The position numbers and the translations under genes are program-made. From Acidobacteriota bacterium (GTDB lineage Bacteria; Acidobacteriota; UBA6911; RPQK01; JAJDTT01), in contig OZ242374.1 in the NCBI GenBank assembly GCA_965209055.1, forward strand, positions 704,001-768,000: 64,000 nt of DNA, written 5' to 3'. The notes beneath the pieces were generated by a model. That model did no database searches. It was not told the DNA's origin and saw nothing but the letters and a program-made list of their open reading frames with translations. The stretch's first letter is position 1; each line of letters begins with the position of its first letter. This document shows, piece by piece, positions 19,001 to 62,507 of the stretch.

Positions 19001-20701
19001 ATGTTACTGGTCCGCACCTGGACACTCGCGATCCTGATCCTGTTCACCAGCGCAGGAAATCCCCTCCTCGCCGGAGAGGGCTCTTCTCCCGGCTGGCCGA
19101 TGTTCGTCGACGTTTCGGAGAGCGCCGGAGTCCCGTTTGTTCACCGTGCATCCGCCACCCCCAAGAAGTTCCTGATGGAGACCATGGGTTCGGGGGTCGC
19201 GCTGCTGGATTACGATGGGGACGGGCTCCTGGACATCTACCTGCTGAACGGGGCCAGGCTGACCGCCGGCATGGTCCCGGGATCGACTCCGGAAAAGTCC
19301 ACGCCCGACTACTGGAACCGGCTCTACAGAAACAACGGAAGCGGGAGATTCAGCGATGCCACCGAAGAGGCCGGAGTCAGCGGACGCGGCTATTCCATGG
19401 GTGTCGCGGTGGGGGACTACGACAACGACGGCCGTCCCGATCTTTACGTCACCAACTACCCCTCGAACCAGCTTTTCCGCAACCAGGGCGGCGGGACCTT
19501 CCGCGAGGTGACCGGGACCGCCGGCGTCAGCGGCGGCGGCTGGTCCAGCAGCGCCGGATTCTTCGACTACGACGGCGACGGAGACTTGGACCTGTTCGTC
19601 TGCCGCTACATGCAGTGGGACTTCGACGACATCTACTGCGGCCGTTCCGAGTTGCGCGCGTACTGCGACCCCACGCGCTTTCCCGCCATTTCCAACCTGC
19701 TCTATCGGAACGACGGCGGCGGGACCTTTACCGACGTGACGCGGAGCAGCGGCATCGGAAACCATCCGAGCAAGGGTCTGGGCGCCGCCTTCAACGACTT
19801 CGACCGGGACGGCCGGCCGGACATCGTCGTGGCAAACGACGGCGTGCCGCAATCATTCTTCCTGAATCAGGGGAACGGCGCCTTTCGGGAGGAAGCCCTG
19901 CTCAAGGGACTGGCTTTCGACGAAGACGGAAACACCTTCGCCGGGATGGGCATCGACTTCCAGGACTACGACCGGGACGGCTGGCCAGACGTACTGATCA
20001 CGACCCTCTCGCTGGAGACCTACGCCCTGTTTCGCAATCTCTCGGGACGGGCCTTCGACTACGTTTCGAAACGCTCCGGCGTGGCCGTGGCCACCCGGCC
20101 TTACTCGGGCTGGGGAACCTTCTTCTTCGACGCCGACAACGACGGCCGGAAGGACATTTTCGTCGCTCAGGGGCACGTCATGGACACCATCGAGTCCACC
20201 AATTCGACACTGAGCTACCTCCAGCCGCCCCTGCTGCTCAGGAACTCGGACGATGTCTTCATTGACTTTTCGCCCGGAAGCGGCCGCCCCTTTGGAGACC
20301 CCCATGCCGGCCGGGGAGCCGCCTTCGGCGACCTGGACAACGACGGCGACCTGGACCTGGTGGTTGTCAACATGGACCGGCGGGTCCAGATACTCCGTAA
20401 CGAAACCACTGGCGCCAATTGGATCAGCTTCCGCTTGAAGGGCCGCCGCTCGAACTCCGAAGGGATCGGCGCGGAGATCCGGATCACGCTGGACTCGGGA
20501 GAGCGTCAGTTCGCCCGCGTCTCCCGGGTCTCCAGCTACCTCTCCTCCAACGACGTGCGCTGCCACTTCGGGTTGGCGGAACATTCATCCATCCTGGAAG
20601 TCCGCGTCACCTGGCCCAGCGGAATCGTGCAGACGCTCCCATCGGTCGGCGCGAATCAGTTCCTGGAGATCCAGGAGCCGGAGGATCGAGGCCAGGAGTA
20701 G
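19001..20701 (+). CDS. CRTAC1-family protein (FG-GAP repeats + ASPIC/UnbV)
   Basis: ETMGSGVALLDYDGDG, GDYDNDG repeats, RGAAFGDLDNDG, C-terminal SYLS..HFGL..VTWPSG. Confidence 0.9.
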   Translation: MLLVRTWTLAILILFTSAGNPLLAGEGSSPGWPMFVDVSESAGVPFVHRASATPKKFLMETMGSGVALLDYDGDGLLDIYLLNGARLTAGMVPGSTPEKSTPDYWNRLYRNNGSGRFSDATEEAGVSGRGYSMGVAVGDYDNDGRPDLYVTNYPSNQLFRNQGGGTFREVTGTAGVSGGGWSSSAGFFDYDGDGDLDLFVCRYMQWDFDDIYCGRSELRAYCDPTRFPAISNLLYRNDGGGTFTDVTRSSGIGNHPSKGLGAAFNDFDRDGRPDIVVANDGVPQSFFLNQGNGAFREEALLKGLAFDEDGNTFAGMGIDFQDYDRDGWPDVLITTLSLETYALFRNLSGRAFDYVSKRSGVAVATRPYSGWGTFFFDADNDGRKDIFVAQGHVMDTIESTNSTLSYLQPPLLLRNSDDVFIDFSPGSGRPFGDPHAGRGAAFGDLDNDGDLDLVVVNMDRRVQILRNETTGANWISFRLKGRRSNSEGIGAEIRITLDSGERQFARVSRVSSYLSSNDVRCHFGLAEHSSILEVRVTWPSGIVQTLPSVGANQFLEIQEPEDRGQE

Positions 20702-43802: not shown

Positions 43803-44681
43803 TTATCCCCAATCGACGCCTGACCGCCGCATGTAGTCGCGGATGTATGTGAGGGTGTCCTCCTGACCGTGTCCCGCGTCCCGGTACCGGGTCACCAGCG
43901 TTTCCACCAGCGGACCCGCCGCCAGCGGCACGCCCAGGTCCCTGCCCAGTTCGACACACAGACGAAGATCCTTGACCGCCCCGTCCGTCACGAAGTGAAG
44001 CGGTTTGCCGTCCAGGGACAGCTTCATGGTCCTTTCCATGAACGTGCTGTGGCCCATGCTCGGCTTGATGACGTCGAGCAGAATCCGCGGATCCAACCCG
44101 GCCTTCACGCCCAGGGCCATCCCCTCGCAGGCGCCGATGAAGTTGATGTACATGATCAGGTTGTTCACCAGCTTGGCGGCGTGGCCGGAACCGAGCGGCC
44201 CCATGTGGACCACGGTCTTTCCGATGCACCGGAAAAGCGGACGATACTTCTCGAACGCTGCCTTTTCTCCACCGGCGAATACGGTCAACGACGCGTCCCG
44301 CGCACCCCAGATGCCCCCGCTGATGGGCGCGTCCAGGACCTGAATGCCCCTGGAGGCGCCGGCTTCCGCGATGCGGCGCATGATCGCCGGTGAATTGGTG
44401 CTGGTGTCGATGCAGGCGGCTCCCGCGGCCAGACCGGAAAAGACGCCGTTGTTGCCCAGCACGACCGATTCCACTTGCACCGGACCGGGCAGGGACAGCA
44501 GCACCGCGTCGGATCGCTCGGCCGTCTCCGCCGGGCTCGTCGCCCAGACGGCGCCCGCATCCTCAAGATTGCGGGCCTGCTCGCGACGGATGTCGTGGAT
44601 GGTCAGTTCGTATCCGGCCTTCTGCAGGTTGGTTGCCATGGGGTTCCCCATGGCGCCCAGGCCGATGAATCCGACTCTCAT
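43803..44681 (-). CDS. Beta-hydroxyacid dehydrogenase (3-hydroxyisobutyrate/tartronate semialdehyde reductase family)
   Basis: GFIGLGAMG, LDAPISGG, AKLVNN. Confidence 0.9.
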   Translation of the reverse strand: MRVGFIGLGAMGNPMATNLQKAGYELTIHDIRREQARNLEDAGAVWATSPAETAERSDAVLLSLPGPVQVESVVLGNNGVFSGLAAGAACIDTSTNSPAIMRRIAEAGASRGIQVLDAPISGGIWGARDASLTVFAGGEKAAFEKYRPLFRCIGKTVVHMGPLGSGHAAKLVNNLIMYINFIGACEGMALGVKAGLDPRILLDVIKPSMGHSTFMERTMKLSLDGKPLHFVTDGAVKDLRLCVELGRDLGVPLAAGPLVETLVTRYRDAGHGQEDTLTYIRDYMRRSGVDWG

Positions 44682-44751
44682 ATCCGCACCTTTCTACCGG
44701 TCCCTGTTTCGCGGGGATCACGGCCGGCGTGAAGTCAGGACCGATGTGAAT

Positions 44752-45540
44752 CTACGGCGTGCCGCGCCGATCGCCGCCGTCCATGTAGATGGAACTTCCG
44801 AACATGTAGGAGCAGACTTCCGATGCCAGAAAGGCGACCACATCGGCGATTTCCTCCGGCTCGGCGATACGTCCGGCCGGAAGCCCAAGCCCCAGGTCCT
44901 TGAGAACCTCCTCCACGTCGCGGCCCTCTTTGTCCGCCTTCGCCTGAAACAGATCGCGCGCCCTTTGTGTGTTGGTGAAACCGGGGCAGATGGTATTGAC
45001 CAGGATGCCGTCCCCCGAGACCGCGTCCGAGAGTGCGCGTGTCATGTTGAGGATGGTGATGTTGGCCAGGCTCACCGGAATGTTGCCCTGGGCCGGACTC
45101 GCGCCGGCGCTCCCCGCGATGTTGACGATGCGTCCCCAGCCGCCCCACTTCATGTGAGGGATCACGAGTTGGGACATGCGAAGGTAGCTGTAGCTCTTCA
45201 AACCCAGCGCGTCGTCGATCAATTCGGTGGGAAGATCCAGGATGTCGTGCGCCTGCGCCGCACCGGCGCAATTCACCAGGATATCGACCCCTCCGAACTG
45301 TTCGACCGTCTCGTCCACGACCCGGCGGCACGCCTCCAAGGTCGTCAGGTCCGCCGAAACGGCATATCCTTCGCCTCCCGCCTCGTTGATCTCCCCGACC
45401 GTCTGGTCCAGTAGATTCCGGTCACGGGCCGTGATGCAGACCCGCGCACCCTCGCGGGCAAGCGCCAGGGCACAGCATCTTCCGATCCCGCGATTGCCGC
45501 CGGTGACGATGGCCACCTTTTCTCTTAGTCCGAGGTCCAT
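44752..45540 (-). CDS. SDR-family oxidoreductase
   Basis: TGGNRGIG, DILVNCAG, VNTICPG. Lacks the canonical YxxxK. Confidence 0.85.
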   Translation of the reverse strand: MDLGLREKVAIVTGGNRGIGRCCALALAREGARVCITARDRNLLDQTVGEINEAGGEGYAVSADLTTLEACRRVVDETVEQFGGVDILVNCAGAAQAHDILDLPTELIDDALGLKSYSYLRMSQLVIPHMKWGGWGRIVNIAGSAGASPAQGNIPVSLANITILNMTRALSDAVSGDGILVNTICPGFTNTQRARDLFQAKADKEGRDVEEVLKDLGLGLPAGRIAEPEEIADVVAFLASEVCSYMFGSSIYMDGGDRRGTP

Positions 45541-45661
45541 GTGTGTTCCTCAATTGTCAGCTGCGCCGCCGGAAACCAGCCTCGCATGGATTTAAATGTG
45601 TTTATACTCAGATCACCCACTCAGAAATAGTGTATCCGAGTCGCTGGTCTAAGTGATCCCC

Positions 45662-47551
45662 ATGCTCCATATCCCGGCAATCGCGGCACTTGCGGGTTTC
45701 CTGCTGTTGGCGCAGGGCGAGCCGGAGAAGGCCCTGAGGCGGGCGGTTCAACTCCAACAGGACGGTGATCTGCAAGGCGCCATCGAAGTGTACCGGTCCT
45801 TGCTGGCCCGTAACCCCGGTCTGGCGGAGGTCCGAGTCAAGTTGGGCAATGCCTACGCTTCGAGCGGCCGGTATCAGGATGCCGTCGCCCAATACGAATC
45901 GGCTATTGAATCCGGCGGTCTCATTGACCCGACGGGCGCCAGATACGCCCTCGGGTGGACCCATTATCGAACGGCCGACTTCGAGAGGGCCAAGCAGATC
46001 CTGGTCCAGGTCGTCGCCGATGGATCGAAGGGCAGGGAAGCCCTTCAGTTGCTGGCCTCCTGCCACTTCAACCTGGGCGAGTGGCGGAAGGTGATCGAAC
46101 TTCTGTCGCCGCTTGAGATGGAATTGTCCCAATCTCCAGCCCTGACCTATCTGTTGGGAGTTGCCCTGGAAGAGGATGGGCGAGAGGAAAAGGGAACGCC
46201 GCTCGTCGAAAACGCCCTGAAAGACACGGACTGGCCGACGTCACGGTTCCGGTCCGAAATGCGCGCAGATTGGCTCAATCGTTTGGCGCGCCGAGGCGGC
46301 AAGTTGATGGAAAACGGAGACTACCCGGGAGCGGCCAGGCACTTGGAAAGAGCCCTCGCGCTCGACCCGCGGGTCCCTTCGTTGAACGCCACGTACGGGA
46401 AGTTGCTCCGGCTCATGAACCGGCACGACACAGCGAACCAGGCCTTCCTGGAAGAACTCAAGATCAATCCCGACGATTACGACGCCAATCTGTACCGCGG
46501 CATCTTTCTCTTTGAGAACGAACAGCAATATGAGGAAGCCCTGGCCCGCTTCGAACGTGCGCTGCGGACGCGGCCGGGCGATGCGGATGCGCGGTTTCAG
46601 ATGGGACTCGTCTACAGCTCCTCCAACCGGATCGAAGAGGCGATCCGAACCGTGAAGAGTGTGGTGGATGAAAACCCCAATTTCCTGGAAGGCCACGTGA
46701 CTCTGGCCGGCCTGTACTTCCGGTTGGGACGGCAGGAGGAAGCCGAACGCCACCGGGTCGCCGCCGAGCGGCTGCGGACCAGCAGGGACGGGCAGCACCT
46801 GATCAAGATGGGACAAATCGCGCAGGCCTCGGAGCTGTTCGAGCGCCAGAAGCAGGCGGATCCGTCCGATCCCGAGCCCTACTTCCATCAGGGGATGGGG
46901 CGTTGGCAGGAGCAGGATTGGCCGGGCGCCGCCGCAGAGTTCAAAGAGGCCGTTCGATTGGATGGCAACAATCCCAAGTACGCCATCTACTATTCGAACG
47001 CATTGGCGCAATCGGGAGCGCACGAACTGGCCCGGCCGGTCCTTGAGTCTCTGGGCCGGGATCGATGGCCGCAACTGAACTCCCGCCAGGCCTGGATTCT
47101 GGGGGACACCTATTTTCAGATGGGAGAGCACGACCGGGTTCTCCAGGTCCTGGACTTCCTGGCCGACCGGGAACCGAAAAACGCGCGCGTCGATCTCATG
47201 CGGGGCCAGATCCATCTCCGCAAGGGAGACTATGAGCAAGCCCGCGCCTCCGCTGAAGGGAGCATCAGAAGGCAACCGGACAACGATCTTGCCTATTCAC
47301 TGTTGGGAACGGCCCGGTACCTGTTGAAGGACATGCCGGGGGCGAAAGAGGCTTTCCTCAAGGCTGTCGAGCGAGCTCCCGACAACCCGAATCATCTGCG
47401 CAAGCTGGGCGCGCTCTACCTGGAGTTGGGAGAGACCGAGCCGGCCATCGAGACTCTTGAGCGAGCCCGGCCCGCCGCCGCCAGATTCCCCAGTATCCAA
47501 CGTCTTCTGGAAAGGGCGTACCGGTCCAGGAAGACCGGTTCAAAGGAATAA
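45662..47551 (+). CDS. Exported TPR protein
   Basis: Signal peptide and TPR repeats. Confidence 0.85.
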   Translation: MLHIPAIAALAGFLLLAQGEPEKALRRAVQLQQDGDLQGAIEVYRSLLARNPGLAEVRVKLGNAYASSGRYQDAVAQYESAIESGGLIDPTGARYALGWTHYRTADFERAKQILVQVVADGSKGREALQLLASCHFNLGEWRKVIELLSPLEMELSQSPALTYLLGVALEEDGREEKGTPLVENALKDTDWPTSRFRSEMRADWLNRLARRGGKLMENGDYPGAARHLERALALDPRVPSLNATYGKLLRLMNRHDTANQAFLEELKINPDDYDANLYRGIFLFENEQQYEEALARFERALRTRPGDADARFQMGLVYSSSNRIEEAIRTVKSVVDENPNFLEGHVTLAGLYFRLGRQEEAERHRVAAERLRTSRDGQHLIKMGQIAQASELFERQKQADPSDPEPYFHQGMGRWQEQDWPGAAAEFKEAVRLDGNNPKYAIYYSNALAQSGAHELARPVLESLGRDRWPQLNSRQAWILGDTYFQMGEHDRVLQVLDFLADREPKNARVDLMRGQIHLRKGDYEQARASAEGSIRRQPDNDLAYSLLGTARYLLKDMPGAKEAFLKAVERAPDNPNHLRKLGALYLELGETEPAIETLERARPAAARFPSIQRLLERAYRSRKTGSKE

Positions 47552-47567
47552 AACCACCGCCGCGGCG

Positions 47568-49277
47568 CTAGTCCGGCTCCTCGACCCTGAGAATCTGGTC
47601 GGGTTGGACGCCGTTCAATACCTGAACCTTGCCCGACGGCCAGCGGATCTCCAGAGACTCGACGCCTTCTTCCTTCCCCAAACCGAAATGAACCCGACGG
47701 TCCGGCGAGGACATGAGGCCCACCGTCGAGGAAACAAGGTTGTGAAGGGTCCGTCCCGAGGCCGTCCGCAGCAGGACGGAGGCTCCGATGGCGTCCCGAT
47801 TGCTGGCCCGGCCGCGCAGGTCCAGCATCAGCCAGTGGTTTCCGTTGCCGCCCGAATTTTGCAGAATCCTCGGCTCTTGGTTCAGCGACGTAACGACGAT
47901 ATCCAGGAATCCGTCATCGTTCAGATCTCCGAAGGACGAACCGCGCTGGTAGGCGATGCGCATGAAATCCTGGCCCAGGCTCTCGGAGACATCGGCAAAG
48001 GCCGTCCCCTCCAGGTTCCGCAGCATGGTGTCGTGCTGGGCGGTGTCGGGACTCAGGTATTCCAGGCCCCCGTTGGCCGAATAGATGTCCTTCCAACCGT
48101 CGTTGTCGAAATCGATGAACCCGCTCCCCCAGCCCGTGAACCTGCGGCTCAGCTTGGCCACCTGAGTCCGGTAGCTGACGTACTCGAAGAACCGCCCGCC
48201 CCGGTTCTGAAAGAGCCCGTGGAGCTGGTTTCTGAGGTCGTTGTAGAAAATGTCGACCTGTCCGTCATTGTTGAAATCCTTGGCGTCGGCCCCCATGCCC
48301 GAGCCGGCCACCGCCGAACCTTTGTAGGCGACGCCCAGGAAAAACGAGGCTTCCCGAAAGGTTCCGTTTCCCTGATTCAGATAGAGGAAATTCTGCACCG
48401 TGTCGTTGGCGACGAACACGTCCGGACGGCCGTCCTGATTGAAATCGGCAATTCCCAACCCCATGCCCTTGCCCAACGCCTTGTCGAGGCCCGCCTCGCG
48501 TGAGACATCGGTGAACTTCCCGCCGCCCAGATTCCGGTAGAGCGTGTTGGAAACACTCCGGACGGTCTTGGGACTGCAGTAGAACGGAGTGCCGTCGGGA
48601 AACAGGCAGGGCTTGTCGGTCTTGGCATTCCAGAAGGTGTATTGAGAAACGAACAGGTCCAGCAGGGAATCCTGGTCGTAGTCGAACCAGGCGGCGTCCA
48701 CGCTCAACAGGTCTTTCGGCTTGTCGTCGAGGCCCGACCCGATGGTCACGTCGGTGAACGTCCCGTCGCCGTTGTTTCGATACAGGGTGTTGGGTCCGGC
48801 ATTGCCGATGAACAGGTCGCGGTCGCCGTCGTTGTCGTAGTCGCCGGCGGTCACCCCGAAACAGTAGCCCAATCCGGCCCCCGTCAGGCCGGCCTGCCGG
48901 GTGACGTTCTCGAATCTGCCTCCGCCCAGGTTGCGCAGGAGGCAGTTGTGAAACGAGCGATCGGTCTTCTCGACTTCGGGCAGCTTGGCGCCGTTGGTGA
49001 AGAAGATGTCCTGCCTGCCGTCGCCGTCGTAGTCGAAGATGGCCACGCCGCCGCACATGGGCTGGGGAAAGTACTTGCGCCCGGTGAAGTCGTTATTTGA
49101 TTGGTAGGGAATATCCGATTTGGATGCGATGTCGATGAATCGGATGGATCCCGGATCCTCCCCGCGGGCGGCTGTTTCGGACGGGGCACTCAAGACCCAA
49201 ATGAAAGGGGCAGCCAATACCGGAATGAATAGTCGGCTCCACGCCAGGGTCCATCCCATGGGATGCATCGGAGTCAT
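47568..49277 (-). CDS. CRTAC1-family protein (FG-GAP + ASPIC/UnbV)
   Basis: PMCGGVAIFDYDGDG, GDYDNDG, RGSSFGDLNDDG, HFGLG..IRWPSG. Confidence 0.9.
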   Translation of the reverse strand: MTPMHPMGWTLAWSRLFIPVLAAPFIWVLSAPSETAARGEDPGSIRFIDIASKSDIPYQSNNDFTGRKYFPQPMCGGVAIFDYDGDGRQDIFFTNGAKLPEVEKTDRSFHNCLLRNLGGGRFENVTRQAGLTGAGLGYCFGVTAGDYDNDGDRDLFIGNAGPNTLYRNNGDGTFTDVTIGSGLDDKPKDLLSVDAAWFDYDQDSLLDLFVSQYTFWNAKTDKPCLFPDGTPFYCSPKTVRSVSNTLYRNLGGGKFTDVSREAGLDKALGKGMGLGIADFNQDGRPDVFVANDTVQNFLYLNQGNGTFREASFFLGVAYKGSAVAGSGMGADAKDFNNDGQVDIFYNDLRNQLHGLFQNRGGRFFEYVSYRTQVAKLSRRFTGWGSGFIDFDNDGWKDIYSANGGLEYLSPDTAQHDTMLRNLEGTAFADVSESLGQDFMRIAYQRGSSFGDLNDDGFLDIVVTSLNQEPRILQNSGGNGNHWLMLDLRGRASNRDAIGASVLLRTASGRTLHNLVSSTVGLMSSPDRRVHFGLGKEEGVESLEIRWPSGKVQVLNGVQPDQILRVEEPD

Positions 49278-49315
49278 GGTACGACAATCGTTGGTTTATG
49301 CGGGAGTTCCGCAGG

Positions 49316-50884
49316 TTACGGCCGCTGCCGCCAGATCTGGACCAGCTCCCAGTCCACGCCTTCCCTGGCCTGGCCGAAGTTTCCCAGGATGATGTCGGTG
49401 TCGCCGTCTCCGTCGATGTCACCCAGCTCAAGGGTGATGTAGTCGCACGGAATATCGGCCAAAGAGCGGGGTTGGAAGGACCCGGGTCGGGTCTGTTCGT
49501 ACCAGACCACTCCCGGAAGATTGTATCGACGGCGCACCTCCTCGGTCAGATTGGGGAAATAGGAAGCTGCCACCAGGTCGAGATCGCCATCTCCGTCCAG
49601 GTCCCCCGCTTCGGCGCGGAGAGCGCCGTAGTAGACGTCCACGGGGTGATGGGCAAAGGAAAGGTCGCCTTTGTTCTCCAGCCACGACAGCCCATGGTAG
49701 GGCCTCATCTCCGCCATGGCGTCCAGTGTGTCTCCGTGGGTGAAGAGCACATCCAGGTCCCCGTCTTGATCCAGATCGACCATTTCGAGTCCGCTCGAGC
49801 CCCAGTGCGGGTGAGGCGCGACGAAGAGGGTTTTCTTTTCGAAGGTCCCCGGTCCCCGATTGAGGAACGCGACCACCGCTTCGTGTTCCTGCGAGAGCAG
49901 GGCAATGAAGTCGGTCCTTCCGTCCCGGTCGAGGTCCACGATGGGAATGTGAATCGCGCCGGCCCGGTCATCCAGTTCCACGGACCTGAAATCGCCGGCT
50001 CCGAGTTTCGAGGCTTTTTCCGGACCGGACCCGTTTTCCAGATAGTGAATGCCCCCTACGGTCCTCCATCCGAACTCGGCGACGATGACGTCCACGTCCT
50101 GATCCCCGTCAAAGTCTGCTGCCCGGACGTCGGCGACCCTGCCGATCCCGGTAGCCAGACGGTAGACCTCGAATTCACGCTTCCCGGTCCGCCGGAGCCA
50201 AGCCACCGATCCGGTTCGCTGGTCGGTCGGCTTGGGCCATCCGAGATCTGCGATCAGCAGGTCGGTCCTTCCATCCCGATCCAGGTCCACGACCTCCGCA
50301 TGGCAGGGATTGGTGAGTTTGGCGATGGGTCGGAGGTCCATTTGACCGTCATCGGGATCGGTCCAGCTCACCCACCCGGAGATCATGTCGCTGACCACCA
50401 ATTCGGGGCCCTCCAGATCCGGAAACAGTTCCAGGAGCCGGACATTGGCTGCTCCGGGTTGGAGACCGCGAACCTTCCTGCCCGGCAAGAGTCGGCGGTC
50501 GAACTTGAGCTCCGGCCCCCCGCGCTTTGCCGTCCAACGCGGCGTGTCCAATCGGTCAGGCGCCTTCGACCGGAAGTAGGAGGCGACTTGCAGGGCGTCG
50601 ACGTCCCAGATCGGCTTGTTGTGGGATTGCAGGAGGGTGATGTTGGCCAGTTTGAACTTCCTCTGAATCAGGCCGGGCCATTCCTTCTTGGGGAGGATCT
50701 CCGGGGGCGTCCATTCGTGGCACTGGGTACACGCCTGCCGAATCTTCGTTCCCAAGGCTTCCGCATCCGTGGGCTGGTGGAGTTCGGATGAGACCCCGCT
50801 GGCGGAGGGCCGGGCGGGGCTGAGCAAGAAGAGACTCAGGCAGAGAATCGGGAAACAGCCGGCCGAATGACCACGCGACGTCAT
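49316..50884 (-). CDS. FG-GAP/VCBS repeat protein with N-terminal c-type heme motif
   Basis: Signal peptide, CTQCH..PPEILPKKEW, then repeats DLDRDG/DFDGDQD/DLDQDGD/DIDGDGD. Confidence 0.8.
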   Translation of the reverse strand: MTSRGHSAGCFPILCLSLFLLSPARPSASGVSSELHQPTDAEALGTKIRQACTQCHEWTPPEILPKKEWPGLIQRKFKLANITLLQSHNKPIWDVDALQVASYFRSKAPDRLDTPRWTAKRGGPELKFDRRLLPGRKVRGLQPGAANVRLLELFPDLEGPELVVSDMISGWVSWTDPDDGQMDLRPIAKLTNPCHAEVVDLDRDGRTDLLIADLGWPKPTDQRTGSVAWLRRTGKREFEVYRLATGIGRVADVRAADFDGDQDVDVIVAEFGWRTVGGIHYLENGSGPEKASKLGAGDFRSVELDDRAGAIHIPIVDLDRDGRTDFIALLSQEHEAVVAFLNRGPGTFEKKTLFVAPHPHWGSSGLEMVDLDQDGDLDVLFTHGDTLDAMAEMRPYHGLSWLENKGDLSFAHHPVDVYYGALRAEAGDLDGDGDLDLVAASYFPNLTEEVRRRYNLPGVVWYEQTRPGSFQPRSLADIPCDYITLELGDIDGDGDTDIILGNFGQAREGVDWELVQIWRQRP

Positions 50885-50996: not shown

Positions 50997-53900
50997 ATGG
51001 CCCGGAAAGGCCGAGGCTCGCGGCGCCGACCGAGAAAGAAAAAACGAGTTCGAAGGACCTCGGCGAAGACAAGCTCTCGAACTGCTCCGAAGAAACCGTC
51101 CCCGGACCGGAGGCCCAAGAGCCTCTACCTGGGCTTGGCGGTCCTAGGCGCCATTCTCGCAGCCGGAACTCTCTATTTCTTCAAAGAACGAACTGAATCT
51201 TTTACCCGGAACGTCTGGACCGAGGAGTACACCATCCCTCCCAGGAATCTTCCGCTCGGGGATGTGGAAGAAGCGTTGAAGAAGGTTCCGGAAGGCGCCG
51301 ACGAATGGGATACGGAAGCGCTGGACGTCGAAATCGAGAGCCGGCTCGAGAAGCTGGCCGTTGCGCTCAAGGACACGCCGGATTCCGATTCGTTTCCTTC
51401 CGGGCTGTTGAGCTCCGGATTCAAGGGGACGCCGCTGGAGCCGGCCGCCACCCGGAAGGTCAAGTCCGAAGAGGGGTTGGAGATTCTCCGCGGCGAGGCG
51501 GCCGGCGAGGAGCGTGTCACGGCTGCGGCGTTCCCGTCGGAGGTCGCCAAGCTCCTGCGGGAAGCCGTCCGGATCCGTGATGTGAAATTCAAGGTGACGA
51601 GGATCGAATCGCCCCGGTTTCCAGGATCATCCGTCGTCAGCGACGTCATCTACACCATCGTCGGTCAGGGCAAGGATGGCGAATCCTTGCAGTGGAAGGG
51701 GGACTGGCAACTCAGTTGGCAAAAGGACCGAACGGGCCGCTGGGAACTCTCGCGGCTGAAAGTCCTTGCCGCGTCGCGGGCGAGAAGTGTCGGAAGCGCC
51801 TTCACGGAGGTCACGCATCAAGCGCTGGGAAAGAATGATTCTTACCGGAAGCAGTTGCTTCAGGGAGTCGAGTATTGGCAGGGAGTCCTCGACTATGTGG
51901 CCGGAATGGATGTCTATGGTCACAACGGCGTCGCAATTGCCGATATCGACGGCGACGGCGACGAGGATTTCCATGTCGCCCAGCCGGCGGGCCTGCCCAA
52001 TCTGCTGTTTCGCAACGAGGGAGACGGCACCTTTCTGGACGTCACGGAAATGGCGGGAGTCGACGTCCTGGACAACACGGCCTCCAGTTTCCTGGCCGAC
52101 ACGGACAACGACGGGGACCCGGACCTGATCCTCATCGGGACCAGCTCACTGCTGTTTCAAAACGACGGTTCCGGCCGGTTCAGCCTGGCCAGCGACTCCG
52201 GGTTCGAGGCCATCGATGACACCGACGGCAGCAAAGTGTCCGCCGCCGTGGCCGACTACGACCGGGACGGACACCTGGACATCTACGTCTGCTCATACGC
52301 CTTTTGGCGGGGACAGGAGGAATTGGGCAACTATCCCTTTCCCTACCATGACGCCAACAACGGCGCCCCCAACATCCTCTTGCGGAACCAGGGGAATGGG
52401 TCGTTCCGCGACGTCACCCTCCAATCCGGAATGAACCGGAACAATCTGCGTTACAGCTTCGCCGCGGCGTGGGGTGACTACAACGGCGACCGATACCCGG
52501 ACCTGTACGTCGCCAACGACTTCGGTCGCAACAACCTCTACCGGAACAACGGTGACGGCACCTTCACCGACGTGGCCCGGGAAGCGGGAGTGGAGGACAT
52601 CGGAGCCGGGATGAGCGCGGCCTGGGAGGACTACGACAACGACGGCCGTCTGGACCTCTACGTGGGAAACATGTGGTCGTCGGCGGGTCAGCGGATCACT
52701 TCGTTGCGGCAGTTTCAGAGCCAGCGGCCGCAGGAAGAGGTCCAAAACTATCAACGGCATGCCAAGGGCAACTCGTTGTTCTCCAATCGGGGCGACGGCA
52801 CGTTCGAGGAGGTCGGCGCACAAGCGGACGTGGAGTTGGGACGGTGGGCCTGGAGCAGCGATTTCTTCGACTTCGACAACGACGGTCATGAAGACCTGTA
52901 CGTGGTGAACGGCTTCATCACCAACGAAGACACGAAGGACCTCTGAAGCTTCCTCTGGCGGCAGGTCGTGTCGCAATCGCCATCGGAATCTGCTGTGGCT
53001 TCGGCCCCGCCCGGAGCGCGAATCGGTTCCGAATACCGGAACGGATGGGACGCGGTGAACCTGCTGATCCGGCAGGGCGGTTCCCTGAGTGCGCGCGAGA
53101 CCAATAACTTCTACATCAACTGTGGCGACGGAACCTTCGCCGACGCCTCGGGCATCACAGGGTTGGACTTCCCCGAAGATGGACGGGCCTTCGCCGTGGG
53201 CGACCTCGACCAGGACGGCGACCTGGACCTCATCCTCAAGAATCGAAATTCGCCGCAACTCCGGCTGATGCGAAACCGGTCCGGGAGCAGCTACAACGCG
53301 GCCAGTTTCGACCTCAGGGGCACCCGCAGCAACAGGGACGCCGTCGGAGCGAAGATCACCATCGAGACCGGCGCCGGCTCCAGGTCGAAATTCGTCAAGA
53401 TCGGATCCGGCTTCCTGTCCCAGAGTTCCCGCCGGGTCTGGTTCGGCCTGGGGAACCAGGACGGGATCCGGCAGGCCAGGATCGAGTGGCCCAGCGGGGA
53501 TGTCCAGACTGTTCGCGATCTTCCGGCCAACCACAGGATCGTGATCGTAGAGGGGCGGGACAGGACGGAGACCATTCCGTTTCGGTCTCTCCCGCAAGAT
53601 GACCCCAGGCCGGACGAAGGGGGGAAAGCGCCCGCTGGGGATCCTCCTTTGTACAGCGGAACCTGGTTGCTGGAGAAACTTGCCGCACCCAAGTTCCGGT
53701 TGCCCGGTTTGAACGGAAGGCATCATTCCCTGGGCATGTACCGGGGCCGCCGGGTGTTGTTGAACTTCTGGGCGACTTGGTGTCCGCCTTGCCGGGAAGA
53801 ACTGCGGGACCTGCGATCACATCAGGACGATCTGCGAGACCTCGGCGCCGCGATTCTGGCCATCTCCGTCGATGATCCCTCGGACCGCGCAGAGGTACTG

Positions 53901-55058
53901 GAGTATGCCCGGGAGGAGGAGCTCCCCTTCCCGGTGCTGCTTGCCGACGAGGACGTCATCGCGGCGTACAACCTGGTGAATCGCTTCCTGTTCGAAAAGA
54001 TACGCGACCTGGCCGTTCCCACGTCCATGCTTTTGGATCGGGACGGGAACATCGTCAAGATCTACCGGGGCAGAGTTCCGGCCCGCCAGATCATCCGGGA
54101 CATTCAAAGCACCCCTCGGTCTGAAGAAGAACTGGTCCGGGCCGCCTTTCCCTTTCCCGGGAAATCCATCGGCATGGAATTCGCCCGGGACTACACCATG
54201 ATCGCCGATTCATTCCGAAGGGCCGGACTCAACGACCAGGCGGCGGTCTACTATCAGCACCAGTTGCTGGAGCAGGGCCACGACACGCCCCAGTCGTGGA
54301 ACAGCCTCGGGCTTCTCTACGAGCAAGAGGGGAAATTGGACCAGGCGCGTGAGGCCTACGAAAAGGCCCTCCGGCTGAATCCCGACTACGCGGACAGCCA
54401 CAACAATCTCGGCGCGATGCGCTTGAAGGCGGGGGAAATCGACAAGGCCATAGACAGCTACCGTACCGCCGGGCGATTGGCTCCCTGGTCAGCCGACATC
54501 CAGAGCAACCTGGGCCATGCGCTGCTGGAAAAGGGTCTGCACGCCGAGGCTGTTCGTGCGTTCCGGAAGGCCCATGAGATCGACGTCGAGGTCCCGCAAC
54601 CCCTGGTCAACCTCGGCAACGCCTATCTGCAGATGAAGCGATTTCAGGAAGCGGTCTCGGCCTACGGCAAGGCATTGCGCATGCGGCCGGATTCCGCTGA
54701 GGTCCACCACAACCTGGGCTACGCGTTTCTGGAATCGGGCCGGCTCGACGACGCCTTGGCGTCCTTCGACAGGGCGGTTCGGCTGCGGCCCCAATACGCC
54801 AGCGCCCAGAACAACAGGGGGACGGTCTTCTTGCGAAAGGGCAGGTTCGAAGACGCGGGCCGCGCGTTCGAGGGGGCGATCCGGGCCGACTCCGAGTTCA
54901 GGCCCGCGTATATCAACCTTGCCATGACCCGCCTTCGGGGAAACCAAATCGGGAAAGCCGAGGACGTGCTCCGCCGCCTGCTCAAGGTGAAACCGGACGA
55001 TGCCGTGGCCCTGGACCTGCTGGCGCAGATCGAGCAGGTGAAGTCCTCGGCGCCATAG
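50997..55058 (+). CDS. Membrane-anchored FG-GAP/ASPIC-UnbV/redoxin/TPR fusion; probable selenoprotein (UGA at codon 650)
   Basis: ORFs 50997-52946 and 52968-55058 share a frame and are separated only by TGA 52944-52946 (KDL*SFLWRQVV). The CRTAC1 fold spans the stop. SECIS-like hairpin follows. WATWCPPC redoxin and C-terminal TPRs. Confidence 0.7.
52947..52988 (+). other. Candidate bacterial SECIS element
   Basis: Stem GCGGCA(52958-63)/TGTCGC(52969-74) with loop GGTCG beginning 17 nt after the UGA. Shares GCAGGTC with the E. coli fdhF SECIS apex. Confidence 0.55.
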
Positions 55059-60830: not shown

Positions 60831-62507
60831 ATGGAATTGGAGGTCCCGTTGAAAACCGCGCGAGGTCTCATGTCTCTTCCGGTTCGGCGGCTCGTCTGTG
60901 CAGCGCTTTTCGTGTTCGGCCTCATTTACTGCGCTCGCTCGAGCCGCGATGCTTCGCTTTCGGTTCGGGTCCTCGATGCCGGTACCGGTCAACCCACGCC
61001 GGTGCGGGTCTTGTTGAGCGACTCGGACGGCAACACTCCCCGGGTCACGGGCGCCCTGGCGGTCTCGGAATCTGCGATCCCCATCCCGGACGCCGCCATT
61101 GCAGTCATGTACGGACGCTACGATCGCGCGGAAGGGTATCTGCTCCAGCCCGACGGCTCCTTCTACGTCGACGGTTCTTTCGACGCGCAACTGCCCCCGG
61201 GATCGTATTCGCTCAAGCTGTCCAAGGGATACGAGTTCGTCGCGCAAACCGTGAAGCTCGATCTCAATCCGGGCGAGCGCCTTTCCCGAGAGTACAAGTT
61301 GGAGCGATGGATCGACATGCCCCAGCGCGGCTGGTACTCGGGGGACGATCACATTCACCTGCGGCGGTCGCCGCGCGACGATCCGGCCATTCTTCGCTGG
61401 GCGGCCGCAGAGGATGTGCACGTGGCGCACCTTCTCCAGATGGGGGATTTTTGGGCCACCTACTACTCTCAATATGCCTGGGGCAGCCGCGGCCGTTACC
61501 GCGAGGGGGACAACATCCTCTCGTCCGGCCAGGAAGGCCCCCGGACCCCCGAGATCGGTCACACCATCTCGCTCGGGGCGGAAGAGTTCGTCCGATTTCG
61601 GGACGACTACTACGACTACGGCCGTGTTTTCGACCAAGTCCACGAGCTGGGAGGCATTACCGGCTTCGCCCATCAGGCGATGACCTTTCACGGTTATCGT
61701 GGAATGACACTCAACGTATTGCGAGGCAAGGTCGACTTTCTCGAGGTGATGCAGTTCTGTCCCAAGGAAGGACCGCTGGCGCTGAAGCACTACTATCACT
61801 TCCTGGATCTCGGATACCGGCTTACGGCGCTGGGTGGCTCCGACTTTCCCTGGTGTGGGCGAGGACCTCGCTTCGGCCTTGAAGAGGGGTGTTCGCAGAT
61901 CGGCGACGCCCGGTTCTACACCTATACCGGCGACGGACTCTCGTTTGAGCGCTGGCTGCAGGGCGTCAAGGCAGGCCACACCTTCGTGACCAGCGGACCG
62001 ATGCTGGAGTTTACGGTGAATGACCGGCTTCCCGGCGCGACGCTGGATGTGGAATCGGGCACTGCAATCAGGATCTCGGCCAAAGCCTACGGGAAGGCGT
62101 CTCAAATCCCCTTGCGTCAGCTGGAAATCGTAGCGCATTCCGAAACGCTGAAGAAAGTCTCTGCGGGGGAGCCGGGACAGAGTGAAGAATTGCTCTCGAT
62201 CGAGATGGAGTTGCCGGTGCAACGTGGGATCTGGGTCGCCGCCCGGACCGATGCCGCCCACACCCAAGTCGCCCATACGACGCCGGTCTACGTCAGAGTG
62301 AACGGTGCGGGCTTCCACAACCCGGCAACGGCCGAACACTACCTCGAGCTATGTCGCAGCTACCTGAACGAGCTGGAAGAGGATCTGGCCCAACCAGGGA
62401 AAAGAAGCGATCACCAGGCTGTCAGGCACAAGGAGAGCCTGAAACGGCAGATCATTGAGACCAGAGCCGCGCTGAAGCAATTGGCTTCGGGTCTGGGCCG
62501 GGAATGA
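60831..62507 (+). CDS. CehA/McbA-family (PHP-like) metallohydrolase, exported
   Basis: GWYSGDDHIH, FAH, GGSDFP, GHTFVTSGP, AHTTPVYV. Start uncertain (60831 or 60870). Confidence 0.8.
   Translation: MELEVPLKTARGLMSLPVRRLVCAALFVFGLIYCARSSRDASLSVRVLDAGTGQPTPVRVLLSDSDGNTPRVTGALAVSESAIPIPDAAIAVMYGRYDRAEGYLLQPDGSFYVDGSFDAQLPPGSYSLKLSKGYEFVAQTVKLDLNPGERLSREYKLERWIDMPQRGWYSGDDHIHLRRSPRDDPAILRWAAAEDVHVAHLLQMGDFWATYYSQYAWGSRGRYREGDNILSSGQEGPRTPEIGHTISLGAEEFVRFRDDYYDYGRVFDQVHELGGITGFAHQAMTFHGYRGMTLNVLRGKVDFLEVMQFCPKEGPLALKHYYHFLDLGYRLTALGGSDFPWCGRGPRFGLEEGCSQIGDARFYTYTGDGLSFERWLQGVKAGHTFVTSGPMLEFTVNDRLPGATLDVESGTAIRISAKAYGKASQIPLRQLEIVAHSETLKKVSAGEPGQSEELLSIEMELPVQRGIWVAARTDAAHTQVAHTTPVYVRVNGAGFHNPATAEHYLELCRSYLNELEEDLAQPGKRSDHQAVRHKESLKRQIIETRAALKQLASGLGRE

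Follow-up and report, generated by a model that had tools for sequence, protein, structure and literature searches.

An in-frame TGA at 52944-52946 in a 64,000-nucleotide stretch of Acidobacteriota DNA (the window) is very probably a selenocysteine codon, and what appear as two ORFs would then encode one full-length protein of 1353 residues. The first ORF (50997-52946, forward strand) has 649 aa and is terminated by this TGA. The second (52968-55058) has 696 aa counted from its GTG and lies in the same frame, with only the TGA separating the two. Joined, they read ...NEDTKDL-U-SFLWRQVVSQSP..., which is the read-through product, with its single TGA and its length, that an earlier sequence-only reading had put forward.

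Comparison with domain families shows the make-up of the predicted protein. An N-terminal membrane anchor would be followed by ~240 residues without a known family, then by a propeller with UnbV/ASPIC, a TlpA/ResA-like WCPPC domain and TPR repeats (Table 1). The hydrophobic segment near the N-terminus is probably a signal anchor that leaves the remaining protein extracytoplasmic. In Pfam the propeller region matches FG-GAP_3 at 1.5e-48, with FG-GAP repeats both upstream and downstream of the TGA; FG-GAP (163.6 bits) and UnbV_ASPIC (61.6 bits) both exceed the cut-offs, and the CRTAC1 fold is also matched. AhpC-TSA (7e-24) and Redoxin (1.8e-19), again above cut-offs, match the thioredoxin-fold domain, the CxxC codons of which are 53781-53783 (C929) and 53790-53792 (C932). 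No NCBIfam model is specific to the 1353-residue protein, and it falls short of the full-length ResA/TlpA equivalog models there (for ResA, 74 bits where 170 are required). The genes nearby encode a cupin, a GFO/IDH/MocA oxidoreductase, an M81 peptidase, a PNP_UDP protein and a TonB-type barrel, all ordinary and giving no clue to function; no CcdA/DsbD gene is among them.

Table 1. Features of the predicted selenoprotein gene, in window coordinates
Feature	Position	Strand	Basis
Single gene for a probable 1353-residue selenoprotein, codon 650 being TGA for predicted Sec	50997..55058	+	ORFs, Pfam, TGA conservation
Lone hydrophobic segment, aa 43-62 (LYLGLAVLGAILAAGTLYFF), behind a very basic N-terminus	51123..51182	+	read from translation
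CRTAC1-type FG-GAP beta-propeller, with the Sec codon inside	51909..53276	+	Pfam, AF2, Foldseek
UGA, predicted selenocysteine U650	52944..52946	+	translation, comparative conservation, public contigs
Helical propeller insert, aa 650-692, with Sec at its first residue	52944..53072	+	AF2 model
SECIS-like hairpin, 6 bp, 11 nt past the UGA	52958..52974	+	comparative pairing, fdhF comparison
UnbV/ASPIC domain, aa 782-848	53340..53540	+	Pfam 6.5e-17
TlpA/ResA-like thioredoxin-fold domain, aa 896-1028, WCPPC	53682..54080	+	Pfam, Foldseek
TPR repeats at the C-terminus, about aa 1090-1340	54264..55016	+	Pfam

The TGA is conserved over genera and families, with coding sequence kept on either side. In 41 related genomes the best matches to aa 500-860, 39 in all, each contain a single TGA and no stop besides it, with identities from 95% down to 34%. 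When 401 genomes of the phylum were sampled, one TGA was present in 74 of the 114 matches listed, and counting from these, 60 of the 401 genomes are carriers. The aligned position is identical in all 61 distinct TGA-bearing sequences fetched. These belong to two paralogous subfamilies with ~35% identity between them, the second being shorter (about 950 aa) and reading KDT-U-SFFWRHVV around the site. Neither TAA nor TAG occurs at the site in the TGA-bearing members fetched or the matches examined. Within the genus all nine genomes, the window's own counted, have the same TGA, as do distant relatives and a locus from the Pirellulales. Such conservation at codon 650 is one of the two patterns that had been named in advance as favoring selenocysteine; the other, alternation with cysteine, did not appear (see below). 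Just 3′ of the UGA the codons vary synonymously (AGC/AGT, TTC/TTT, CGG/CGA/CGC) and the residues are constant, so these codons are translated. Of 2400 long ORFs in the genome 1519 end in TGA, more than in any other stop; the genetic code is unchanged. The possibility that independent sequence might have TGC or TGG at 52944-52946 was also addressed: in the contigs that cover the site, drawn from four public runs (one RNA library and three independent DNA studies), TGA stands without any other letter. The RNA-library contig spans 52806-52974, thus extending 28 letters beyond the TGA against the 31 required to bridge it, so it is no evidence of expression.

Following the UGA is a small hairpin with 5′ arm GCGGCA (52958-52963), loop GGTCG (52964-52968) and 3′ arm TGTCGC (52969-52974), the loop being preceded by 17 nt, just as the sequence-only reading had described it. 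In 43 distinct TGA sequences 85.4% of cells are paired, and 500 shuffles gave no paired share and no covariation score as high. Among the 43, the middle pair is CG in 23, GU in 12, GC in 3 and AU in 2, and is unpaired in 3. For 16 non-TGA homologues with the same encoded peptide the share of paired cells is 56.3%, with the middle pair formed in five. When the named loci are included, all six inner pairs are present in 49 of 61 TGA sequences versus 1 of 23 non-TGA homologues. The hairpin is thus conserved, with one covarying pair (52961/52971), in TGA forms only. Folding of the 76 nt around the TGA is no better than that of shuffles (z 0.02); a hairpin this short is undetectable by single-sequence MFE, and comparative counts were used instead. 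An Rfam scan of 52850-53100 gave no SECIS family and only a chance snoRNA match.

SelB requires the loop G and U together with the 11-nt spacing. Here these two loop letters double as positions 1 and 2 of a conserved Val codon, and so could be fixed by coding alone. The resemblance to E. coli fdhF that had been pointed out from the sequence extends to the spacing, with 11 nt between the UGA and a short stem-loop within the ORF in both, and to the heptamer GCAGGUC, with GGUC opening the apical loop, which lies 16 nt after the UGA in fdhF and 15 nt after it here. In contrast to fdhF, the 6-bp stem has no bulged U, the loop is the 5-nt GGUCG, and the encoded protein bears no relation to formate dehydrogenase.

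All four of selA, selB, selC and selD, which the sequence-only reading had singled out to be looked for, are present in the source genome (selA at 443 bits, selD at 300 bits, the SelB wing domain and tRNA-Sec, selC). Of the TGA carriers, 56 of 60 have selA; in the remaining four, tRNA-Sec scores over the Rfam threshold. Taken together, the conserved UGA, the hairpin and the Sec machinery constitute a recoding signal that is shown by comparison. A search of the genome with TIGR01553 gave no formate dehydrogenase over the cut-off, the best match being without an internal stop, and AhpC-TSA and Rdx family searches gave no member containing a stop. A crude, non-exhaustive genome scan for genes with a TGA plus a hairpin yielded 159 candidates, of which 17 were examined with Pfam. 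Only a second FG-GAP/UnbV/redoxin paralogue among these looked real, the remainder being gene ends, tandem genes or non-coding frames.

Could the UGA nevertheless be a true stop, so that a 649-residue part is made, either alone or together with a C-terminal part whose translation starts anew at GTG 52968? Gene callers do split the gene in two, the GTG is 21 nt past the stop, and a protein search gave only uninterrupted homologues as full-length proteins. Against this very improbable reading stands the use of TGA, in frame and never TAA or TAG, over the whole 34-95% range of identity. The six codons from TGA to GTG keep their residues by synonymous change and belong to a single unbroken protein in non-TGA homologues. 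No AGGAGG-like or other Shine-Dalgarno-like site is apparent by eye ahead of GTG 52968, in keeping with what had been noted earlier, and the break would fall inside a propeller fold that is modelled as one domain. That the stop cuts a CRTAC1-type fold had likewise been recognized from the sequence: FG-GAP repeats lie on both sides with UnbV downstream, and FG-GAP and UnbV are uninterrupted in the window paralogues at 19001-20701 and 47568-49277, which in an alignment have gaps over most of aa 655-707, a range spanning the helical insert. The split ORFs are all that would point to an error of sequencing, or to a pseudogene with a nonsense mutation of recent date, and this reading is refuted by the presence of the same TGA throughout the genus, in far relatives and in contigs of the three independent DNA studies, and both gene halves are conserved. 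It is also scarcely probable that a near-cognate or suppressor tRNA, and not Sec-tRNA, reads the UGA, with the hairpin a general read-through stimulator. The many small residues tolerated at the site in non-TGA homologues might mean that any inserted residue would serve. However, the Sec machinery is in 60 of 60 TGA-bearing genomes, the hairpin spacing and GCAGGUC are those of a SelB-binding SECIS, and frequent replacement of the TGA by sense codons would be expected, of which there is none in the genera sampled. Under selenocysteine decoding, the hairpin would recruit SelB with Sec-tRNA(Sec) to the UGA, Sec would be inserted and translation would go on to give the single long protein.

An AlphaFold2 model (pLDDT 88.2, pTM 0.89) builds the propeller as one domain across the Sec site. 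Sec650 had been placed in a propeller loop; its location in the propeller stands, and in the model it opens an alpha-helix, 346-356 in model numbering, within a helical insert between blades (the other insert helices being 360-364 and 374-388) rather than in a plain loop. The CxxC of the thioredoxin-fold domain is also at a helix start. The pTM suggests a fixed arrangement of the modelled domains. With CRTAC1 the protein shares an FG-GAP propeller plus UnbV/ASPIC, and CRTAC1 is not known to have selenocysteine, a fused redoxin or TPR. The Foldseek match to the murine protein (9etn_A) has an E-value of 1.5e-27, a TM-score on the target of 0.70 and 21% identity. ResA (1st9_A) and TlpA share the thioredoxin fold, with TM-scores on the target of 0.90 and about 0.7, respectively; in contrast to both, the fold is here one domain within a protein of 1353 residues.

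Cysteine at the Sec position is usual in homologues of selenoproteins, without being defining, and its near-absence is unusual for catalytic Sec. In this family it is found in just 1 of 136 non-TGA homologues, the others having A, G, S, N, D, E, L or Y. The CxxC is intact in all 25 full-length TGA forms. The 136 non-TGA forms divide into 12 with CxxC, 3 with Cxxx, 50 with xxxC and 71 without either Cys, and the 12 show that TGA and CxxC are not strictly tied. On a tree, three changes suffice for the TGA state and seven for the CxxC state, with 2-3 independent pairs. This is too few for a phylogeny-aware test, so the link between Sec and CxxC is inseparable from shared descent.

What Sec650 does is approached with more caution. 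That it is redox-active and extracytoplasmic is put at slightly short of an even chance. A catalytic Cys or Sec is often at the N-terminus of a helix, and Sec650 may cap its helix in this way and react with a substrate. The fused TlpA-like domain could then use its CxxC to reduce oxidized Sec650 again in a selenol-thiol relay, and would itself be recharged by a membrane reductant such as CcdA/DsbD. Recycling of the Sec by the fused WCPPC redoxin was an idea of the sequence-only reading; it gains from the co-occurrence (25 of 25 TGA forms versus 12 of 136 others) and is still conjectural. Homologues in which the site is A, G, S or N and the CxxC has decayed would have lost the chemistry and retained only a binding or structural role. 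The whole proposal, a first beta-propeller selenoenzyme outside the cytoplasm, with its Sec recycled in cis by a TlpA-like CxxC and with the Ala/Gly/Ser/Asn homologues as dead descendants, is tentative and falls clearly below an even chance.

Sec might instead be inserted without any relay with the fused CxxC, for metal or metalloid binding or to act alone, with the TlpA-like domain serving another client; this is clearly less likely than not. No Cys is adjacent to Sec650 in the translation, the CxxC is kept in the 12 non-TGA forms, the FG-GAP propeller is a type of binding module, and there are known cases of TlpA-type domains acting on separate proteins, as in the TlpA-ScoI complex of PDB 4txo. 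Weighing the other way are the invariable CxxC of full-length TGA forms despite the low identity between the two subfamilies, its loss in most non-TGA forms, and the fixed domain arrangement that the pTM of 0.89 suggests.

That the protein is outside the classical selenoprotein families, as had been suspected, agrees with a 2026 catalogue of 119 prokaryotic families (PMC13188914, Table 1), where no family has this domain make-up or Sec motif and in the text of which FG-GAP, propeller, CRTAC, TPR, integrin and Acidobacteri have 0 occurrences. Its TlpA/redoxin families similarly have such a domain inside a selenoprotein, but their Sec is in the redoxin motif, whereas here that motif is CPPC and Sec is ~280 residues upstream in the propeller. 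A search for literature on FG-GAP, ASPIC or Acidobacteria selenoproteins gave no paper on the 1353-residue family, and a planctomycete UnbV search gave only Kim et al. 2016 (PMC4807772). The S9 Table of that work has planctomycete ASPIC/UnbV FG-GAP candidates P1 and P2, each split into two adjacent gene ids, with an Acidobacteriaceae protein having Gly at the site as the closest homologue listed. The likeness of P1 and P2 is by description; the domain description is the same and the Gly homologue fits the A/G/S/N pattern here, and a Pirellulales genome has its TGA at the position seen in this family. What that supplementary table offers is a row without analysis of the site, hairpin or redoxin. 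The TGA at which the gene is annotated as two is very probably read as selenocysteine, and the single protein so made belongs to a widespread bacterial family omitted by selenoprotein catalogues.

If so, the exported proteins of a large and common bacterial family are halved by routine annotation. The family occurs in Acidobacteriota, Bryobacterales, Pirellulales and sponge-associated communities. It departs from the usual selenoprotein pattern in having Sec in a beta-propeller and not in a thioredoxin-like motif, in having relatives with small non-thiol residues and not Cys, and in having, in the sequences sampled, an intact CxxC in the fused TlpA-like domain always alongside Sec. Should the propeller selenoenzyme with dead homologues prove true, selenium chemistry would have been lost outright in the family and not swapped for cysteine. 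With no FdhA-type selenoprotein found by TIGR01553, the FG-GAP/UnbV/redoxin selenoprotein bears on the reason why these genomes retain the Sec machinery, and it would open the function of bacterial CRTAC1-like proteins to testing.

The gene at 50997-55058 on the forward strand, split in two by annotation, very probably belongs to a selenoprotein family that is widespread and missing from the catalogues. A single TGA at 52944-52946 is the sole interruption between its ORFs, which the ORF listing and joined translation confirm to be in one frame. The joined product of 1353 residues reads ...TKDL-U-SFLWRQVVSQSP... around the selenocysteine, Sec650, and has six FG-GAP stretches by Pfam, at least one of them on either side of the TGA. 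The sequence-only reading had the stop cutting a fold that is contiguous in the paralogues at 19001-20701 and 47568-49277; Pfam and alignment bear this out, FG-GAP and UnbV being there within a single unbroken ORF. Its selenoprotein interpretation holds, and the finding is real. Residues 1-304 (50997-51908) lack a Pfam match at thresholds of E ≤ 0.01 or 0.001. By inspection the N-terminus is basic and is followed by one hydrophobic segment, residues 43-62, which suggests a signal anchor with the remaining protein extracytoplasmic, the side on which TlpA/ResA-type domains work.

Features of the selenoprotein gene, its short paralogue, the selenocysteine machinery of the genome (G000) and the DNA contigs that cover the TGA
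Feature	Location	Details
Upstream ORF	50997-52946	649 codons, ends in TGA
Downstream ORF	52968-55058	same frame as 50997-52946
Hairpin	arms 52958-52963 and 52969-52974	loop GGTCG
UnbV_ASPIC	aa 782-848	Pfam
AhpC-TSA/Redoxin	aa 896-1028	Pfam; WCPPC
TPR repeats	after Redoxin domain, to protein end	Pfam
Short paralogue (locus L204)	G000:C1:4189666-4192536	957 aa; FG-GAP, UnbV_ASPIC, Redoxin with WCGPC, no TPR
selA	genome G000	443.5 bits
SelB winged-helix domain	genome G000	74.6 bits
selD	genome G000	299.6 bits
tRNA-Sec	genome G000	anticodon TCA
Sequencing run X5, record 5	covers 52944-52946, entire stretch	DNA study contig
Sequencing run X7, record 13	covers 52944-52946	DNA study contig
Sequencing run X8, record 24	covers 52944-52946	DNA study contig

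In the vicinity of the gene are further FG-GAP/UnbV genes of CRTAC1 type and a TPR protein of 632 residues (19001-20701, 45653-47551, 47568-49277), and the 142 matches to a propeller query in the genome point to a very large paralogous family. No Pfam family was found at E ≤ 0.01 or 0.001 for ORFs 49298-50791, 44344-45414 and 60831-62507, the first of which is directly upstream of the selenoprotein gene, with a 541-codon ORF on its other strand. Nothing in the neighbouring genes hints at the substrate.

When residues 500-860 were searched in 41 related genomes, the best 39 matches (identity 95% to 34%, open frames of ~680-1400 residues) each had exactly one TGA and no other stop. Residues 600-720 were matched in 92 of the 401 sampled genomes of the phylum and, by hand count, 74 of the 114 matches listed, from 60 genomes, have one TGA. 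The conservation sought at codon 650 was found: in the subset with fetched DNA all 61 distinct TGA-bearing sequences have the TGA at the identical aligned position, directly followed by S/T-[FLY]-[FL]-W-R. The six codons 3′ of it show synonymous changes with the residues kept, and are therefore translated. Two subfamilies are distinguished, a long one (~1350 aa, DL-U-SF[FL]WRQVV), to which the window's gene belongs, and a short one (~950 aa, KDT-U-SFFWRHVV) without TPR repeats. The genome carries one of each, and its short form, outside the window, likewise has an in-frame TGA at that aligned position, and an 8-bp hairpin. Named TGA-bearing records are from Acidobacteriota MAGs, Candidatus Marinacidobacterales, Bryobacterales, a Bryobacter sp. 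and a Pirellulales MAG; Ala or Asn instead stands at the site in records from Terracidiphilus and Acidobacteriaceae. The claims are independent of three unpublished genomes: G016 (loci L020/L041), which provides one TGA row in each of the 41- and 401-genome counts, one row in each of alignments A2 and A4 and one of the 25 TGA forms of the CxxC tally, G182 (L060), with one non-TGA row in alignment A3 and in that tally, and G063, with one non-TGA row in the 401-genome count. In sponge-metagenome runs many other contigs match only the 37-nt block 52938-52974, containing the TGA and hairpin, some at high depth (such as records 9 and 10 of X5, with depths of 792 and 52), and other members of sponge communities seem to carry genes with near-identical UGA-hairpin letters.

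The TGA itself is present, with no other letter, in contigs of three DNA studies and in an RNA-library contig (run X19, record 4), which ends 28 letters past the TGA and so is not counted as bridging. An altered genetic code is excluded, since ordinary stops in this genome are most often TGA (1519 TGA, 613 TAG and 268 TAA in ORFs of at least 500 codons; 62.8% GC). The genes selA, selB, selC and selD, on whose presence the sequence-only reading had made its case depend, are all in the genome. At E ≤ 1e-40, selA is present in 56 of the 60 genomes that bear the TGA, and the remaining four (G009, G117, G341 and G279) have a tRNA-Sec of 68-76 bits, G009 also with selB; as selA is present in 301 of the 401 sampled genomes, the machinery is a necessary condition rather than a sharp test. 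In G009 and G012, of the same family as the window's genome and 95% complete, selA was not found at E ≤ 1e-30, most simply because of a gap in the assembly; tRNA-Sec, selB and the TGA-bearing gene are present in each. An AhpC/TSA peroxiredoxin gene (138.7 bits) with no internal stop is ~170 nt 3′ of selD on the same strand (G000:C1:4970212-4971683). Elsewhere in the genome, a sarcosine-oxidase-alpha-like frame (L203, G000:C1:5647517-5653036) contains a run of several hundred Gly codons with scattered Trp and Val, seemingly low-complexity sequence or an artefact of this genome's long-read assembly.

The hairpin proposed 3′ of the UGA is present. Folded alone, the region is no better than shuffles (z 0.02), and an Rfam scan of it gave no match; its support is comparative. 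Across 43 distinct TGA sequences, 85.4% of cells are paired at the seven proposed pairs, and none of 500 shuffles attained the observed degree of pairing or of covariation. In the middle of the stem, the pair between the wobble base of an Arg codon and the first base of a Ser/Ala/Pro codon is CG in 23, GU in 12, GC in 3 and AU in 2, with 3 unpaired. In contrast, 16 non-TGA homologues encoding the same SFFWRQVV have 56.3% of cells paired, no better than shuffled, and form this middle pair in 5. With named loci included, all six inner pairs are present in 49 of 61 TGA sequences versus 1 of 23 non-TGA sequences, and mean MFE is −10.8 versus −7.3 kcal/mol (Mann-Whitney p 3e-5, uncorrected for relatedness); L089 and L091, the TGA sequences that have just two pairs in this register, still form a hairpin, shifted by one base. 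In E. coli fdhF an 11-nt spacer separates the UGA from GGUUGCA-GGUC-UGCACC, and in the gene of the window an 11-nt spacer likewise precedes GCGGCA-GGUCG-UGUCGC; the heptamer GCAGGUC, already noticed from sequence at nearly the same offset, is at 16 in fdhF and 15 here. SelB recognises the loop G and U of the SECIS and requires 11-nt spacing. A caveat on the hairpin is that its loop G and U coincide with the first letters of a conserved Val codon. A genome-wide scan for a TGA plus hairpin gave repeated identical candidates, for instance some ten with offset 11, stem 7 and loop TGTTC, and seven with offset 10, stem 6, loop CCGTTGC and flanks of 99 and 234 codons, which suggests repeated elements. 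By comparison among homologues the UGA of the family is shown to be recoded, giving one protein, most simply through what would be SelB acting at the downstream hairpin.

Unbroken homologues of ~1275 aa have the same architecture as the window's protein. The anticipated TGA/Cys alternation was not seen: the site in 136 non-TGA forms is A, G, S, N, D, E, L or Y, with Cys in one, and this replacement pattern differs from the usual Sec/Cys alternation. All 25 full-length TGA forms, from both subfamilies, retain the two cysteines of the redoxin-domain CxxC (C929, C932); of the 136 non-TGA forms, 12 have CxxC, 3 Cxxx, 50 xxxC and 71 neither Cys, though part of the last may lack the domain or be misaligned. 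Among the non-TGA forms with CxxC are the nearest relatives of the TGA forms. A tree built on the propeller part (156 rows) has only 3 changes in TGA state and 7 in CxxC state, and the resulting 2-3 independent contrasts are insufficient for a test. The association, as it appears in these alignments, is striking, yet inseparable from descent.

An AlphaFold2 model of residues 305-1044 from a 58-row alignment (mean pLDDT 88.2, pTM 0.89) places Sec650, model residue 346, within the propeller as had been proposed, but not in a plain loop: it is the first residue of a helix, 346-356, immediately preceded by strand 341-344, and opens a helical insert. Over most of residues 655-707, a span covering the insert, the paralogues within the window show gaps. 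Helix 626-637 of the model starts at the CxxC (residues 625 and 628). Foldseek matched the propeller and UnbV part to murine CRTAC1 (9etn_A, E 1.5e-27) and the redoxin part to ResA, TlpA and DsbE-type proteins (TM-score on target up to 0.90).

NCBIfam has no model specific to the family. Table 1 and a term search of the text of a 2026 review (PMC13188914), which covers 119 families or subfamilies of prokaryotic selenoproteins, gave no FG-GAP, UnbV or propeller family. Planctomycete selenoprotein candidates of ASPIC/UnbV FG-GAP type, which may belong to this family, are listed in a supplementary table of Kim et al. 2016 (PMC4807772, S9 Table), where the nearest homologue named is from Acidobacteriaceae and has Gly. 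As a kind of system, SelB/SECIS recoding is already known; the family, with Sec in a propeller, non-Cys replacements and a CxxC link, is undescribed in the literature searchable here. Fused thioredoxin-like domains serve periplasmic methionine sulfoxide reductases, and the proposed relay is likened to these: Sec650 would be redox-active and then regenerated by the fused CxxC, for which we see slightly short of an even chance. The Ala, Gly, Ser and Asn forms of the family would then have lost this Sec/CxxC chemistry.
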